Assembly: GCA_963752595.1 (NCBI GenBank) | Contig: CAVVYZ010000023.1 | Location: forward strand, 20,961 to 84,960 | DNA: 64,000 nt | Direction: 5' to 3' | From: an uncultured delta proteobacterium | GTDB lineage: Bacteria > Desulfobacterota > Desulfomonilia > UBA1062 | Shown: piece after piece, positions 36,124 through 42,800 of the stretch | Position numbering within the stretch: position 1 is the first letter of the stretch | Layout of the letters: every line of letters begins with the position of its first letter | Position numbers and translations under genes: made by a program | Notes under the pieces: model-generated | What the model saw: the letters and a program-made list of their open reading frames with translations, nothing else | Database searches by the model: none | What the model was told of the DNA's origin: nothing

Positions 36124-36195
36124 GGGCCGCTAGCTCAGCGGGAGAGCGCTGCCTTCACACGGCAGAAGTCACAGGTTCAAATCCTGTGCGGCCCA
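36124..36195 (+). tRNA. tRNA-Val(CAC)
   Basis: Acceptor stem GGGCCGC/GCGGCCC, D arm GCTC/GAGC, anticodon arm CTGCC-TTCACAC-GGCAG, T arm ACAGG-TTCAAAT-CCTGT. Confidence 0.96.
36171..36188 (+). repeat. attL core (tRNA T-arm)
   Basis: Identical to 42506-42523. Confidence 0.88.
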
Positions 36196-36236
36196 TACCT
36201 AACTCCTTAATATAATTGTCATATTTTAACTCAAAT

Positions 36237-36258
36237 ATGTTCGCGGAATGTTCGCGGG
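36237..36258 (+). repeat. Putative integrase arm-type sites (2 x TGTTCGCGG)
   Basis: ATGTTCGCGGAATGTTCGCGGG is identical to 42452-42473. Confidence 0.75.
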
Positions 36259-36356
36259 GTTTTTCCAAACCTGTTTTCACTTGTTTATTTTTTTTCAAAT
36301 ATGCAAGATGCCTAAATAGATAATTGATTTTTTTTATTGTTTAAAAGGGATAATAT

Positions 36357-37148
36357 ATGCCACGTGATCAAATACTAAAAAGGGCTTTTGAAATAGCAGA
36401 CGATGGTATGCAAGGTGCTGTTGGATATTTTTATTATGTTGTTGCTGCTCAAGGATTAGCGAAAGAGGAGAGAATAATAGACTACCTCCCAAAAGGATTG
36501 GCTAAACAAAGCGATGGAACACACAAGCCAGCATTCGTTATGAATATGTTCCATCAATGGGTTCGATTTTATAATCCTTTAGAACTCATTCAAACAATGC
36601 ATTCTGTTTTCATACCATACCACATTCGTACATGTTTGTTAGGTATAGTAAGCATCTTTGAGGGATATCTACGAAACACTACTGATCGCTTAGTTAAAAA
36701 AGGATTAATTCCTCGATTACCGGATACTTATAAACAGCGTCTAAAATGGGCGATCGACATTGTACTTACTTCAAACTATGGCGATTCGGAAATGCAAAAG
36801 AGATGTCCGAAATTATGTCTGGATTTAGACCATGCGAGACGTATAAGGAATTTATGGATGCATAATAATGGCAATTTTAATAAACGGTATAAGAGGGATG
36901 CTTTAGCTATTGCCGGTCATGATGCGATAGTTGTACCGGCGTTCTTAAAATTTAAAAAATCTCCCAAAAGTAAAATTGCTTTTCCTATTGAAATGGCACT
37001 ATTCGAAACAATTTCTTGTTCTCACATAGAGGCACTACATCATATTAACCACATGCTACAGACACAACATTTCGGCCAGAAAAGGTCATATGGATATGCA
37101 CGTGAAAATAAAAAAATCGAATGGGAACGCCTACTAACGGGAGTTTAA
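36357..37148 (+). CDS. Putative HEPN-domain RNase
   Basis: IVSIFEGYL helix plus RNLWMH (Rx4H) motif; intact ORF with RBS. Confidence 0.65.
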   Translation: MPRDQILKRAFEIADDGMQGAVGYFYYVVAAQGLAKEERIIDYLPKGLAKQSDGTHKPAFVMNMFHQWVRFYNPLELIQTMHSVFIPYHIRTCLLGIVSIFEGYLRNTTDRLVKKGLIPRLPDTYKQRLKWAIDIVLTSNYGDSEMQKRCPKLCLDLDHARRIRNLWMHNNGNFNKRYKRDALAIAGHDAIVVPAFLKFKKSPKSKIAFPIEMALFETISCSHIEALHHINHMLQTQHFGQKRSYGYARENKKIEWERLLTGV

Positions 37149-37216
37149 GAGTTAAACGCTCAAGGCAATATTTTATTTTTCATATTTTTTAACATTCGCA
37201 GATCGGGTCTGAAACA

Positions 37217-37632
37217 TTATCGATATAACATTTCAATGCCTCTTTTGTCACAAACATCATATAAGTCAATTGTATTAAAACAGATAAAGCCATCAATAGA
37301 TAATGACACATCTTCAAGCATTGATCTAATCACATGATCTACCAAACTGTATGTTTTAGTTTGTTTTTCAAGCACAAATTCTAAAAGAGGTTCACGATAG
37401 CATTTATCTTCAATCAATATTGTTGAGGGTAAATCTAAGAAATGTTTAAATCTAACAACATCATGCTTTCTACGAACTAATCGAGTATGAATCGTCTCAT
37501 AAAGGGTGGGCCAAGGGACGAGTAGTGAATGAACTTGTATCTGTTCATCACCATAGCTTCAGAGTGAAAAGCATCTCTTTCATTGAATAAGGCGAACCAA
37601 TAACCTGAATCAGCAAAAATATTTTTTGGCAT
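37217..37632 (-). CDS. PIN-domain (VapC-like) nuclease (one indel)
   Basis: MPKNIFADSGYWFAL...D.FH, PWPTLYET, SLVD, CFN..D; TAATG coupling to the upstream gene. Confidence 0.75.
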
Positions 37633-37962
37633 TAGATATCATCCTCTGATTCCGCGCCCCCATAACCTTTCCAAGGTGATGCCTTGCGTTTTCCAATGAT
37701 AAATCTACCTTTATTGAGCCTCCGAAGATTTCCAAATAATATATATCCTATCTGATTTGGAAAAATTTACATTTTCTTCCAATTCTTGTCTTAATTTAAT
37801 AGATATATCATCCTCATCATCTTTAAGTGCAGAATATTGAAATACTGCCAAACTACCACCACATTCCTTTGCATCGAGATTATCTAACCATTCATAAAGC
37901 CCCGCATAATCTCCCTTCACTCCAAGGTCATATGAAAGCCATATAGTTTTTTTCATTTTCAA
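37632..37962 (-). CDS. Small Cas2/VapD-like hypothetical protein (one indel near 3' end)
   Basis: IWLSYDL....DY..LY.WLD...A.ECG..., DRIYII; continues GRFIIGKRKASPW.GY in the next frame. Confidence 0.55.
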
Positions 37963-37978
37963 AAGTCCCTTCTGTTCT

Positions 37979-39091
37979 TTAATAGATTTTTCTCTTTTTG
38001 ATTTCGATTATTTTCCCTTCAAGTAAAGCTCTTTTATCATCCAATTCAACCTTCCCATACCGATATACTGATTGAACGCTGGCATGTCCTGTCGCTATCT
38101 TAACTTGTTCAGGAGAATATTGCTTCATCATCTTTGTAACCGTTGAATGCTTTGTTCCTGAATATAGGTTAATCTGAACGCCCGTTTCCTTACAAGCCTC
38201 ATTCCAAAGCCGGCGTACTATGTCCTTAGTGTATCTCTTATGAGGATGATTTGATTCTTTGCAGTTGAAAACAAAGGGGCTAAAGGGATAATCGGTTGCC
38301 ATGCTTTCAAGGATCTCCACAAAATCTGATACAAGAGGGACCTCGTGAATCTTTTTATCTTTTGTGTATACTACTTCCTCACCGCCTGAAATTCCTCTTT
38401 GAACAATGAAAGCCTTTTTATTGGGTCATAATCCTGTTTCATGAGCATCATGGCTGAACTTGGCCTTATCTCAGGATGATATTTAAGCAACCAGAAGATC
38501 GGCTGATGTTTTGTTTCAATAGCTTTAATAATTTTAATCTGGATTTCTTCTGTAACAGCCTTTGGTATTGGATCAACAATTTTATATTCTCGTCGCTTAA
38601 GGGGAAGGGGAGGGAATCTATTAGCTCAGATCTCCAAGCATAATCCATTGCTGATGAAAGACTATCTATAACTTTTTTACGAGTGTTCGGAGTAATCTCT
38701 TTTTTGTCGAGCTCGTTCTTGAGCTGCTTTATGACTTTGAGTTTCACTTCATGAAGCTGGTATTGATACTTGATGAAGAAAGGCTCTAGGTGGTTATTAA
38801 CATACCCCAAATAGTTTTTATAAGTGCCGGGAGACCAATCTCCTTTACATTCATCCAACCATTCACGCAAAAATTGAACTACATTTGAATCTCCATGATA
38901 ATATTTTCTCGGATTAAAAACACCCCGTTCGACATCACCTTGCATCTGATGGAGGCATTTTTCAGCGTCCTCTTTAGTTCTCATCCTTAATCCACGATAG
39001 AATGAGACCTCATACCGTTCGCCTTCATAAAAGAATTTGAATAGAACCAGGTTTTCTTTACTCCATGACGTTGATGGATGCTCCCCTTCAT
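37979..39091 (-). CDS. Tyrosine recombinase/integrase (indels)
   Basis: MKGSIHQR arm-binding N-terminus, SPGTYKNY core-binding region, IRP, LYSGTKHS, TGHASVQSVYRY. Confidence 0.88.
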
Positions 39092-39121
39092 ACAGGTCTC
39101 CAAATTATCACAATAGCTGTT

Positions 39122-39150
39122 ATGGTAAACCTGTTTTTTGTGGAGGTCAA
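39122..39150 (-). promoter_or_regulatory. Integrase promoter
   Basis: TTGACC-17 bp-TACCAT. Confidence 0.6.
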
Positions 39151-39269
39151 TTGCATCGTGGAAGCCCTTATATTTAAACCTTTTTTAAAATTACACTTGA
39201 AGTCCGTTAATAGACGATCTTTTCCTTTTTCAAATTTTTCTTTGTTCTAAAATCTAAGGATTAAAAGGA

Positions 39270-39939
39270 ATATCAGTACTTTCTATTATCAGTCTGTGGT
39301 TATTGAGCCACTGATAGGGATTTTTCACAAAGAAATACATGGTCCTTCTATCTCTTACCCCTGTAGCTCTTCTAGTTGCCTTTGAAGTATATAAAAAGCC
39401 CTCTCAGTCATAGGATAGGTTACTTTGGCAGAAAAAGGGATTTTACCACCTTTACCCCATACATTACCCAGATCTGCATCATAATCTTCAAGGTCTTCTT
39501 TCCCGAGATACTTGCCAGCATAGCCCATTATCCCATTTTCACTTTTAATGGTTTCAACCCTTGTTCCTGCTAATAGATGTTTATCAACTCCAGAGCTGAC
39601 AACATTGAACCATATTGTTGCGATCAACTTACGGGCATCTTCATAAGGTACTCCCCACAGAAAGAAGTGATAGTGAGGAGCTATCTCACCTTTATGAATT
39701 CCAGACTTCCTTTTCTTTATTTCTAAACGCCATATGTAACCGAGATAGGGGTATTCTCTTTTTAAACGCCTGAAGAACTCCTTTATGTGAGCCTTGCTTT
39801 CTTTTGGACTTGGGATTTTTTCATCAGGATATGTCAGCGTTACAAATATAGGTTTTTTATTTCTCTTAACCATTGCCATCATGAGCATTAAACCTTTTCG
39901 ACTTTGTCTTGAAAACCTCTTTCTTATCGCACCAGCCAT
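39270..39939 (-). CDS. HUH rolling-circle replication initiator with two catalytic Tyr
   Basis: Motif I FVTLTY, motif II PHYHFFLW, motif III YAGKYLGK; C-terminus likely extends past 39355 via an indel. Confidence 0.85.
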
Positions 39940-40334
39940 GAATCATCTCCTTTTTTAAACACTAAAACTTTCACTATACCGTTGTCATACTGGATCACCT
40001 CTTTGACGGATTTTCTCCTTCCCTTGGTTTCCTTGAAGATTATCAATCTGCCTTCAGGATAGTAATCTATGACTATGAGATTATTACCTTTTACATTTAT
40101 TCTTCTAGGTATATGCTTATGGTTTGATGGATGATTTGTTTCATAGGTATGTGTTCTTGAATTAACATAGGACAAGCCCCTGGCACCTTCGGTGCCTCTG
40201 CCGCTTGCGCTCGCTTGCTCCCCTCCCATAGTTCGCCGCTCGCTTGCGGCAGGGTCATCAGGTTCAATCTCAGAAAGTGGTCTTATTGGATATGCGTTTT
40301 CAAAAAGATTAAGTTGTTTTGGTTGTTTTGCCAT
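39924..40334 (-). CDS. Hypothetical protein upstream of Rep (or Rep N-terminus) with QLNLF clamp-binding-like motif
   Basis: 136-aa ORF overlapping rep by 16 nt; spans the GC-rich hairpin cluster. Confidence 0.55.
   Translation of the reverse strand: MAKQPKQLNLFENAYPIRPLSEIEPDDPAASERRTMGGEQASASGRGTEGARGLSYVNSRTHTYETNHPSNHKHIPRRINVKGNNLIVIDYYPEGRLIIFKETKGRRKSVKEVIQYDNGIVKVLVFKKGDDSWLVR
40161..40254 (-). other. Candidate double-strand origin
   Basis: GC-rich hairpins (CTGCCGC/GCGGCAG, GGCACC-GAA-GGTGCC), repeated GCAAGCGAGCG, followed by GGGCTTGTC. Confidence 0.45.
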
Positions 40335-40368
40335 ATGGGGCTTTTCCCTCTCTTTGAGAGAGCCCCAC

Positions 40369-40397
40369 TTGACTCTTTAGCTATAGAAATATACATT
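40369..40397 (+). promoter_or_regulatory. Antisense promoter in the rep leader
   Basis: TTGACT-17 bp-TACATT. Confidence 0.65.
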
Positions 40398-40402
40398 TAT
40401 AC

Positions 40403-40484
40403 AGCTGAGTAAGCCGAAAGGCCCTCATGCTCCAAAAGGCCAGGCATTGCGTCTCGCCAAAGTCCGATGCCTGGCTTTTCCTTT
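40403..40484 (+). ncRNA. Candidate countertranscribed copy-control RNA
   Basis: GCC-GAAA-GGC hairpin then terminator AAAAGGCCAGGCATTG..CGATGCCTGGCTTTTCCTTT; antisense to the rep leader. Confidence 0.55.
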
Positions 40485-40493
40485 AATTAATTC

Positions 40494-40896
40494 TTATTTT
40501 TTTTCACGCGTGCCATATAAAGCCCTTTTTCTTTGTCATAACTTTCATCATCTATTCTATATTCTTCTTCCCTCTTTATTCTCATTTCTTCTTTTATCTT
40601 TTCAACATCTTCGGCAGGGGATATAAATGTAAGCCCCGTGGGTTCGATTTAGGAGAACACGTAGGGCATGTGTTAATTTACTATCTTGATCATCATAACT
40701 AAACCTATAGGCCCTTATACGTTTCTCTTTTCTTCAAGTTGATGATATAGGCTCTGCTCACATCTAGCCTTCCAGCAGCCCCACCAGGAGAAACCACTTG
40801 CCCTTCAAATTCTTCACACACTTGATTAAACTCATCAAACGAGTTTAATTTAATTGTTCCACCCTCACATGATTTGAAGTTTTTTTTCTTATCCAT
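40494..40896 (-). CDS. Small HTH DNA-binding protein (Xis/Cop-like; indels)
   Basis: VSPGGAAGRLDVSRAYI helix-turn-helix; AAGGAA RBS. Confidence 0.65.
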
Positions 40897-40938
40897 GACT
40901 TATGTTCCTTTCGTCTTTAGGATATCTACTAAACAAGA

Positions 40939-40977
40939 GTTAGTAACATAGGTTAGTAACATATGTTAACAACATAG
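40939..40977. repeat. Three tandem 13-bp repeats (operator or iterons)
   Basis: GTTAGTAACATAG GTTAGTAACATAT GTTAACAACATAG. Confidence 0.8.
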
Positions 40978-41002
40978 ATCAAGTATAAAAATGTGATGAT
41001 CT

Positions 41003-41200
41003 CTACGCTTCACTCCCCCGGCTCCCCACAGGTCCGCCGACCCTCCCTTCGTCCTCTTTTCCTGACTGCCGAAAGACTGACCCCTCTGGGCCTCCATTGT
41101 GCCTTCATTACATTACGGCACAACAGAACCTAGGCCCTGGGAAGCTATCCGGGGTCTCGGCGGTCAGAGAGGAGTATGGGGTAGCGTTCAGCTACGCTAC
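41003..41200. other. Candidate single-strand origin or packaging hairpin
   Basis: Nested stems TCCTCT/AGAGGA, CTGACTGCCGA/TCGGCGGTCAG, GACCCC/GGGGTC, GGGCCT/AGGCCC, TTGTGCC/GGCACAA; TAGCGT hexamers adjacent. Confidence 0.55.
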
Positions 41201-41323
41201 GAGAAGATAGCTTCAATGAAATCTATAAACGCAAGAATAATGAATTATTCAGCCTCAAAGTAGATCATTTAATTATAATATGATATTAAATCCTTAGACC
41301 GCTTCTAAAGAGAGGGTATAAAT

Positions 41324-42359
41324 ATGAAAAGGAACTCAAATAATAATATAATTTTTACAATTTTAATTTCTTTTATTATCCTGAATTATTTACCCATTAA
41401 AGCAGAAGCAGATGAGAACCCTCAAGAACAAAAAATATTGGTTCTGGAAAATAGATTAAAAATAAACACAGAGTCTCTTGATGCGGTTAGAAGAGATCAG
41501 CTTAATTATAATATAGAAAAAAATTTGTTAAAAGAAGCATACGCTTCAAACATGCAAACAATTAACCTTATTATAGCTCTAATACTTGGTTCATTAACAA
41601 TCCTTGGATATGCTGGAGTAAGAAGTATCAATTCAATCAAGAAAGATTTTAAAGGAGAGTTAGATAATTTAATTTTATTAAGAAGTGAGTTTGACTTGAA
41701 AATGAGAGATGTTGATGATCAACTTTTAAACGCAAAGAAAAGATACGATGAATTAGCTCAAGTAAACGAAAAGCAGGATAAACGCCTTCAAATTCTAGAA
41801 ATTCAAGAGAAATCAGCTGCGCTTATAAAAGAGAAGAACTTTTCAAATGCCCTAAGATACATCGATATTGGCCTTAGCCTTTCTAGTCATGATATTAGTT
41901 TTCTATCAATGAAAGCATTATGTCTATTATGTCTAAAAAGGTTTGATGAATGCATCTTTGCCTATGAAATTTTATTATCACAAGACTCAAACAATATTAG
42001 TGCTATCACAAACTTAATTGAGCTTTATTTACTTACAGGAAAGCGGGAAAAATCTAGTTTCTTATGCAGGTGCATTTGCCAATACTCAGTTCCATTTATG
42101 GCCCTTATTTTTCATGGTACATATCTGCACTTGATCACTTCCTATCAGGAAACGAAGAGGATTTGAAAAAATTGTTGATGCATCATCCTGTAGATGTTCC
42201 TGAATCAAAATCTCCACGTATAAATAACTGGACCTATGGTGACGCTCTCTATATTTATAAACCGTATGTCCAATAAACCGGGATATAAAGCTATGTTAGG
42301 TGCATACTTTCTTAGAAGGTAAGCTATCTCTCGAAGAATTTAACAGAGAAATTCGCTGA
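41324..42359 (+). CDS. Membrane-anchored coiled-coil/TPR protein (indels in 3' part)
   Basis: Signal peptide (..IKAEA), TM helix INLIIALILGSLTILGYAGV, coiled coil, TPR helices; 3' end approximate. Confidence 0.65.
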
Positions 42360-42451
42360 CATACATTACGGTTCAACCAAACGAACTGGCGCTTACGGCG
42401 AAGTCCGTAATCTAACTTAATCACTAATCATCAACACATTCGAAACACAGA

Positions 42452-42473
42452 ATGTTCGCGGAATGTTCGCGGG
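42452..42473 (+). repeat. Putative integrase arm-type sites (2 x TGTTCGCGG)
   Basis: Identical to 36237-36258. Confidence 0.75.
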
Positions 42474-42505
42474 TACCTGTAGAACAAGGCCTGATGCTGG
42501 TGTAA

Positions 42506-42523
42506 ACAGGTTCAAATCCTGTG
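42506..42523 (+). repeat. attR core (displaced tRNA 3' fragment)
   Basis: ACAGGTTCAAATCCTGTG, then TGGCAA instead of CGGCCC. Confidence 0.88.
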
Positions 42524-42560: not shown

Positions 42561-42800
42561 GTGACTTTACCCAAAGGGTGGAGTCACAATGTTTTGTTTT
42601 GTCTTTGAATCCCCATTGAAACAGGTGAGGAGCGGAGGGGAAATTTGGGGAAACAGCGGCGTTTGTCTGAGCGGAGTGAAACGGAGCGAGTTTAGCCGCG
42701 GCCCAAATTTTCCCGAGCACCGCAGCGGACCCCGCAGGGGCTGTTTCACTTGGGGTGCCCTTTTTCGGTTCCTTTTTTGGGCAAGCAAAAAGGAACAAAA
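42561..42800. other. Highly structured non-coding element
   Basis: Nested inverted repeats CCCCA/TGGGG, TGAAACAG/CTGTTTCA, GGGAAATTTGGG/CCCAAATTTTCCC, GCGGC/GCCGC, GTTCCTTTTT/AAAAAGGAAC. Confidence 0.6.

Follow-up and report, generated by a model that had tools for sequence, protein, structure and literature searches.

A PF23343 Rep-integrase island at a tRNA-Val gene of an uncultured deltaproteobacterium is probably an integrating rolling-circle mini-plasmid

Integrative plasmids that encode a replication initiator (Rep) of the HUH type and carry no viral structural genes have been described, including Rep clusters known only in the integrated state, and exchange of Rep genes with inoviruses has been reported (PMC6668415). 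The nearest named group, the pVT736-1-like cluster (pXF1.3, pXAG82, and phage Pf3), is listed in the same source as free plasmids. In one type of streptococcal integrative mobilizable elements (IMEs), the relaxases possess a PHA00330 domain and resemble initiators of rolling-circle replication. Here, a 64,000-nucleotide stretch of an uncultured delta proteobacterium (the window; assembly GCA_963752595.1, contig CAVVYZ010000023.1, positions 20,961 to 84,960) was analyzed, in which an AT-rich island inserted at a tRNA-Val(CAC) gene encodes an HUH Rep of family PF23343 together with a tyrosine integrase. The island is interpreted, with moderate confidence, as an integrating rolling-circle mini-plasmid. 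A preliminary description of this DNA had proposed an undescribed class of element; this was too broad, since integrative HUH-Rep plasmids that lack a capsid (PMC6668415) have already been published, as have streptococcal IMEs that are compact islands of regulator, Rep, and integrase with no coupling protein (PMC5357655, PMC5704250), and the element represents a new family rather than a new class.

The boundaries of the island are defined by duplication of the 3′ end of the tRNA gene: 18 bases are identical at positions 36171 and 42506, with a spacing of 6,335 bp, and a longer version of this attachment (att) repeat pair matches at 21 of 22 bases. Just inside each end, two 11-mers form a 22-nt repeat, which has the same orientation at both places (36237 and 42452); repeats with an 11-bp period are also found close to the ends of six related loci (L030, L031, L064, L066, L068, and L075). 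Arm sites are established for lambda-type integrases, and the repeats, whose design is that expected of such sites, are putative integrase-binding sites. The G+C content of the island is 36.8% versus 56.4% and 50.0% in its flanks. Thus, the AT-rich island of about 6.3 kb with 18-bp att and arm-like repeats outlined in the preliminary description was confirmed, and it displays the att-bounded, site-specific integration of an integrative rolling-circle plasmid. The tRNA was the sole passing match in an Rfam scan of the island. An empty attB site was not seen among 10 same-genus genomes; the right-flank regulator gene occurs in one of them, in another context without tRNA-Val. The host assembly (84% complete, with a listed contamination of 6.8%) contains three tRNA-Val(CAC) genes, on contigs C21, C23, and C28, two of which are 90% identical to the island's copy. 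Just beyond the right att site, a GC-rich palindromic intergenic stretch (42590-42800) resembles a small repeated element.

The same core recurs with other cargo at other sites. Among 121 other genomes of the class, the Rep profile matches two, both with an integrase of the same family after Rep; among 400 genomes of the phylum, one further match was found, a C-terminal Rep fragment without an integrase. One of the related elements (L030, genome G119) is a complete island with 7,593 bp between 37-bp repeats, which resemble the 3′ end of an ssrA gene, and its cargo comprises a type II restriction-modification (RM) pair and a DUF262-HEPN pair. Three more complete islands carry different cargo: L064 (4,310 bp, at tRNA-Ser), L066 (4,383 bp), and L068 (4,976 bp, at tRNA-Val(CAC), the same site as the studied island). 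None of these four att-bounded relatives, which span 4.3-7.6 kb, has morphogenesis genes, and relatives carry, among other cargo, type II RM, DUF262-HEPN, and BsuBI/PstI genes. In addition, locus L065 is the L066 element as a circle, with its ends joined and a single att site inside the contig. The preliminary description had named two findings that would speak against its reading, namely homologues confined to larger inovirus or prophage genomes and a lack of Rep-integrase linkage elsewhere; neither applies, since linked pairs with variable, often defense-type cargo exist in other genomes and outside inoviruses.

A wider scan of metagenomes, from which the best 80 of 145 confirmed Rep matches were taken, gave 79 loci, with an integrase match in 11, a match to the inovirus morphogenesis ATPase pI/Zot in one, and terminal repeats in 28. 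Circles of 1.06-2.94 kb without integrase or Zot matches account for 27 of the 79 and consist of Rep and a few small open reading frames (ORFs), suggesting that minimal plasmids or sub-viral circles of this kind form a sizeable group that has no name yet. These circles (L070, L073, L074, L077, L082, and 22 more) carry the origin motif described below and often one small upstream ORF; five of their small ORFs gave no Pfam match, and a CopG-like label was assigned by eye. As a single query, the island Rep recovered none of 40 relatives and one spurious viral locus, and its homologue P0002 gave no match in metagenome contigs. In a quick tree, from which four duplicate rows and Rep ORFs shorter than 190 aa were excluded, the island Rep falls in a 12-row clade with SH-aLRT support of 97%. 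An integrase lies directly downstream in six of the eight clade members that have DNA context (the island, L030, L064, L065/L066, L068, and L075), with gaps of 11-270 bp in the relatives; the other two are an inovirus (L069) and a contig that ends 75 bp after Rep (L063). Reps in other branches and phyla are linked to other tyrosine or serine recombinases (L019, L022, L076, and L092), suggesting that the Rep-integrase pairing arose more than once. Comparison with a second host island (L016:2332-11700, contig C30, tRNA-Ser CGA), which has 30-bp att repeats and insertion sequences, points to swapping of modules among islands: its integrase is 81% identical at the DNA level to that of L064 and uses the same host site, and its initiator is unrelated, Rep_trans-like by eye, and without a match to PF02486.

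The core of the island lies on the minus strand in the order regulator, 136-aa ORF, HUH Rep, and tyrosine integrase, and cargo genes are located at both ends, as had been proposed from the gene positions. The Rep ORF (39939-39358) contains the motifs FVTLTY, PHYH, and YAGKY and matches PF23343 with an E value of 4e-13. Residues T34, H89/H91, Y140, K143, and Y144 are invariant in a 12-row alignment, and HUH motifs I-III are all present. Over 194 aa the protein is 90% identical to an intact homologue (P0016), and no solved structure matched the Rep profile. The preliminary description had also placed a helix-turn-helix (HTH) gene and an ORF with the peptide QLNLF in the core; gene order, Rep, and integrase were upheld, but the regulator has no Pfam HTH match, the 136-aa ORF corresponds to the N-terminal part of Rep, and QLNLF is not conserved. 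This ORF matches the N-terminal parts of full-length Reps in L068, L075, and L030 and has a separate 115-aa homologue, P0014. The Rep core begins at its own ATG with AGGAG ahead. The same start residue is found in two homologues of different origin, P0002 and P0016, and protein records give P0014 and P0016 as distinct proteins, each assigned to a 6,690-bp contig; the split of Rep into two ORFs is therefore probably real in this sub-branch. A predicted complex of the two chains gave weak support, with a score of 0.57 versus 0.25 for the best control, contact agreement of at least 46%, and partner pLDDT of at least 37; in calibration, 116 of 157 solved pairs and 2 of 215 mismatched pairs attained the mark, and those that did so with scores up to 0.60 comprised only 18 of the solved pairs and both mismatches. 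Two other ideas concerning this ORF were rejected. A clamp-binding role of QLNLF was unsupported, as only P0014 among eight homologues has a version of it (QLLLF), and a programmed frameshift joining the ORF to Rep is contradicted by a stop in the Rep frame just upstream of the Rep ATG.

Near the Rep N-terminus, a GLSxxHI peptide behaves like a DNA signal. The 55 distinct copies selected by the peptide pattern hardly vary at synonymous positions: the first base of the Leu codon is T in 52 and the His codon is CAT in 54, compared to a Rep-gene background of 36% TTR and 59% CAT. The corresponding 17-nt motif, YTTRWCH-N6-CATA, is found in 73 of the 79 Rep loci from which the pattern was itself derived, with 80 matches on the rep strand and none on the opposite strand; 10 matches, some from duplicate loci, are out of frame with Rep. 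In an independent record, the 3-kb circle MW202783, the motif is the best match (24.7 bits), located in an intergenic region just upstream of rep. This record (L182:2923-3020), labelled Inoviridae, contains a second, weaker match in inverted orientation at a distance of 100 bp from the motif, and its six ORFs gave no PHROG match. The motif was not found in pXF1.3, pXAG82, pREC02, L020-L023, or L025. Its strand bias and position suggest a candidate Rep nick site. The origin of phiX174 lies within gene A, and the motif is reminiscent of CTTG, the sequence nicked in pC194 and phiX174.

The candidate double-strand origin, single-strand origin, and antisense RNA proposed in the preliminary description each received comparative support, of unequal strength. 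The region of the candidate double-strand origin matches the DNA of L075 (E value of 3e-12), L068 (5e-10), and L065 (0.01). None of the other windows among 83 scanned is as stable as the one with the long hairpin at 41031-41200 (z of -3.5 and -4.6); a similar fold is predicted at the corresponding position in L030 and L075, and among the three sequences both bases are changed in 19 of 55 pairs. The putative antisense RNA would run opposite the Rep leader. L064 retains its hexamers and hairpins but has a different spacer (z of -5.4 and -4.5), and the unit was found in 1 of 177 loci. Its hairpin was not listed by the terminator scan, and the promoter count (3 versus 2.5 expected) is not significant alone. 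Rolling-circle plasmids have counter-transcripts, to which this unit is likened.

Taken together, the observed boundaries, the gene content, the recurrence of this core at different sites with different cargo, and the joined ends of one relative make an integrating rolling-circle mini-plasmid the probable identity of the island. The integrase, with the small regulator, would excise the island as a 6,335-bp circle; Rep would nick at the motif within the 5′ part of its own gene and then replicate the circle; the upstream hairpin may prime the second strand; and the circle would re-enter a tRNA-Val gene. In the integrated state, the regulator and the antisense RNA may keep Rep down, and toxin-type cargo flanking attP may stabilize the element or defend the host. 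The element may have originated when a small regulator-plus-Rep plasmid acquired a resident island integrase. Since the island has no transfer gene of its own, its spread between cells would be passive, most likely within phage particles.

Several observations weigh against this interpretation. The circular form is known from L065 alone, whose junction could also reflect a head-to-tail tandem, and the studied copy is known only integrated. The island's own copy of the motif (40180-40151, minus strand) scores 5.0 bits, the third best within the element, and its right half has diverged. The comparison of the putative single-strand origin rests on three sequences chosen by eye, and this hairpin has no sequence match in 177 loci. 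The integrase family occurs in 25 of 122 class genomes versus 3 of 122 for the Rep profile and is hence not tied to Rep, and the Rep of the inovirus L069 nests within the clade as sister to the L068 Rep (98% support). Moreover, at least nine frame breaks occur in approximately 1,900 island codons, affecting the integrase, the Rep C-terminus, the regulator, and the Cas2-like, PIN, and TPR genes, a rate above both host controls, namely 2 breaks in 764 aligned codons of flanking genes and 1 break, in rplB, in 3,593 codons of 19 ribosomal-operon genes. The island breaks are frame changes, most of them one-base losses, and assembly error is likely their main cause; as the rate exceeds both controls, some true decay of island genes is possible.

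An alternative judged unlikely, though less so than the two that follow, is that of a filamentous-phage satellite similar to TLC or RS1 of Vibrio cholerae but with its own integrase, for which a helper inovirus would extrude the single-stranded DNA circle made by Rep, the hairpin at 41031-41200 serving as the packaging signal. The phage L069 combines Zot/pI with the same origin motif as the islands and the Rep placement given above, a size of 4-8 kb and single-stranded DNA intermediates are compatible with packaging, and a precedent exists (PMC3545932). One genome of the class, G041, has a clear Zot gene (E value of 2e-30); the other 11 of 12 Zot matches among 122 class genomes are weak. However, no helper is at hand for this or the following alternative, because the host genome, at its 84% completeness, gave no Zot, VirB4 (PF03135), or TrwB-type (PF10412) match; Zot is present in only one of the 79 Rep loci; and no packaging hairpin in common with L069 was found. 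Furthermore, viral Reps are typically nested among plasmid Reps according to PMC6668415, which explains L069 as capture of a Rep by a phage. In its broadest form, equally doubtful, the islands would be a family of inovirus satellites that bear an integrase: a filamentous phage of their clade, with the same Rep and nick site, would extrude them in its particles, and they would spread RM, HEPN, and PIN defense genes among anaerobic deltaproteobacteria, with the replicon also existing as 1-3 kb circles. If true, a single origin motif would be common to tiny plasmids, integrative islands, and inoviruses, and in this sub-branch the nick would be made by a Rep split into two chains. As separate observations, L069:1-6162 is an inovirus-like unit with a TraX-like gene and repeated ends that are 92% identical, and the G041 gene (L154, contig C5), the sole strong Zot gene among the 122 genomes, adjoins a secretin-like ORF in a probable inovirus prophage.

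It is quite improbable that the island is an integrative mobilizable element, in which Rep would be a relaxase and its origin an origin of transfer, the nicked strand being moved by a co-resident conjugative element. The compact plan resembles that of streptococcal IMEs with relaxases of the rolling-circle type, 35 of 118 of which have no coupling protein (PMC5704250, PMC5357655), but Pfam and PHROG scans of the element's ORFs revealed no coupling protein, the host genome, at 84% completeness, gave none of the matches noted above, and the known helpers use TcpA and come from Firmicutes (PMC5704250). Least probable is a decayed remnant, either what is left of an inovirus prophage after deletion or an inactive island with truly broken genes, for which the density of frame breaks and the inovirus within the Rep clade could be cited, but the att core and the arm repeat are preserved without a mismatch at both ends, the four complete relatives likewise lack morphogenesis genes, the 90% identical Rep is intact, and the breaks are mostly one-base losses of a kind of damage that reaches essential host genes such as rplB.

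Table 1. Features of the island, with positions in the window
Feature	Coordinates	Strand	Evidence
tRNA-Val(CAC), integration target	36124..36195	+	ARAGORN; Rfam RF00005
att core inside tRNA, 18 bp	36171..36188	+	exact repeat
Arm-type repeat, left end, two 11-mers	36237..36258	+	repeat comparison
HEPN-fold protein, 263 aa, likely RNase, intact	36357..37148	+	motif, structure model
PIN-like protein, one frame break	37217..37632	-	Atlas lead
Cas2/VapD-fold protein, ~110 aa, one frame break, partner of PIN gene	37635..37962	-	homologue model
Tyrosine integrase, ~370 aa, three frame breaks	37979..39091	-	Pfam Phage_int_SAM_3; phrog_1/216
HUH Rep core (PF23343), ~244 aa, two frame breaks in C-terminal part	39207..39939	-	Pfam; homologue P0016
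136-aa ORF (QLNLF), split-off Rep N-terminal part	39924..40334	-	matches to full-length Rep N-termini
Candidate double-strand origin: hairpins, then degenerate family motif starting at 40180	40151..40250	-	DNA match to relatives
Candidate antisense RNA: promoter-like hexamers 40369-40397, two hairpins, U-rich tail	40369..40490	+	conservation in L064
Regulator or excisionase-like protein, ~116 aa, one frame break	40487..40896	-	homologue in L064
Operator-like TGTTACTAAC repeats upstream of regulator	40937..40975	-	same word upstream of L064 regulator
Candidate single-strand origin or packaging signal in a long, imperfect hairpin	41031..41200	.	fold stability
Cargo protein (membrane, coiled-coil, TPR), frame broken at least once	41324..42276	+	weak Pfam TPR_2, E 0.001, below cut-off
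Arm-type repeat, right end	42452..42473	+	repeat comparison
att core, right end, 18 bp	42506..42523	+	exact repeat

The integrase (Table 1) is in four pieces compared to intact homologues with 44-61% identity; the integrase of L068 gave no match among phage records. Over 63 aa, the regulator is 51% identical to the product of L064:3823-4173, an intact homologue that weakly matches the excisionase family phrog_4691 (E value of 0.004), and the TGTTACTAAC repeats upstream of it form a putative operator.

Among the cargo genes, the 263-aa ORF at the left end encodes a likely RNase, as judged from its predicted structure. Its model (pLDDT of 95) has HEPN-type proteins as best structural matches (rmsd of 3.2-4.0, 130-136 aligned residues), with a Z score of 10.6 that lies below the tool's caution mark for helical bundles, though the top rows are HEPN-type. 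R164 and H169, which form an Rx4H motif in agreement with the Rx4-6H pattern of HEPN RNases, are invariant in 58 rows, and 64 other relatives were found (66 matches including the protein itself and one short match); Pfam and PADLOC gave no match. The RNase cargo named in the preliminary description is therefore supported in its fold and motif, while the activity is predicted only. The PIN-like gene is linked by an Atlas score of 0.93 to a cluster in which 19% of the members carry PF01850; its pieces have no Pfam match, and intact homologues show 31-42% identity. The adjoining Cas2-like gene is in two pieces versus intact homologues (286 representatives), and the ferredoxin-like fold was recognized on the model of homologue P0020, which matches Cas2 (Z score of 8.9, rmsd of 2.4, 77 aligned residues). 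The PIN gene comes after the Cas2-like gene in 8 of 12 other loci, suggesting a candidate toxin-antitoxin or defense pair; this two-gene module (island 37217-37962; L166-L172 and L174) has no Pfam, NCBIfam, or PADLOC name. For the island cargo as a whole, no meaningful PADLOC or NCBIfam match was obtained, and its toxin or defense function is putative.

Two further loci with PF23343-family Reps were encountered. One is a 2.6-kb contig (L023; 46-52% GC) in a metagenome-assembled genome labelled Borreliella garinii, where it is probably mis-binned. The other is a 7.9-kb att-bounded island at tRNA-Met (L132:2608-10594) with an integrase, an NTPase, and membrane proteins, which may be a divergent inovirus.

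One PF23343 replicon is thus seen in three ways: as tiny circles, as integrative islands with defense-type cargo, and within an inovirus. The strand-specific 17-nt motif offers a direct nick-site test for a Rep family without a solved relative. The most interesting possibility for the spread of the islands is packaging by an inovirus: if it occurs, filamentous-phage satellites would reach well beyond Vibrio, and if not, the islands merely add a family to a kind of element that is already known. No published account of the PF23343 island family or of the motif was found in a search that covered few subscription papers and lay outside two supplementary files of PMC6668415, which could list the clade.

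Comparison with described systems places the island among small integrative replicons. It differs from inoviruses in that neither Pfam, PHROG, nor Zot queries revealed the pI/Zot morphogenesis ATPase or any virion or morphogenesis gene among the ORFs scanned. TLC and RS1 (PMC3545932) resemble it in small size, in the combination of a regulator with a rolling-circle initiator, in the absence of morphogenesis genes from the elements as described, and in a plasmid form beside the integrated form, but they integrate at dif by means of the host XerCD and are packaged as satellites, whereas the island has its own integrase and a tRNA att site, and its packaging is hypothetical. PICMI (PMC10803314), at about 6 kb, similarly combines an integrase, a small regulator, and a replication gene with defense cargo and no packaging genes, but employs a primase and a fis site in Vibrionaceae, in contrast to the HUH Rep and the tRNA or ssrA-like sites of the island family. 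For each of these satellite precedents, TLC, RS1, and PICMI, one defining feature is missing from the island. Streptococcal IMEs (PMC5357655, PMC5704250) share a compact Rep, a small accessory gene, a tyrosine integrase, tRNA 3′ ends, variable cargo, and sometimes the lack of a coupling protein; they belong to another phylum, and 83 of 118 carry TcpA (PMC5704250), whereas the island ORFs have no FtsK-like match. The pVT736-1-like plasmids pXF1.3 and pXAG82 have Reps only approximately 30% identical (29-30% to homologue P0007) and lack the 17-nt motif. The pCRESS Reps have an SF3 helicase domain (PMC6668415), unlike Reps of the island type, of which an intact sister has 244 aa and the homologues are annotated with PF23343 only. 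With the integrative HUH-Rep plasmids of PMC6668415, the island has in common an HUH Rep, integration between direct repeats, and the absence of viral structural genes.

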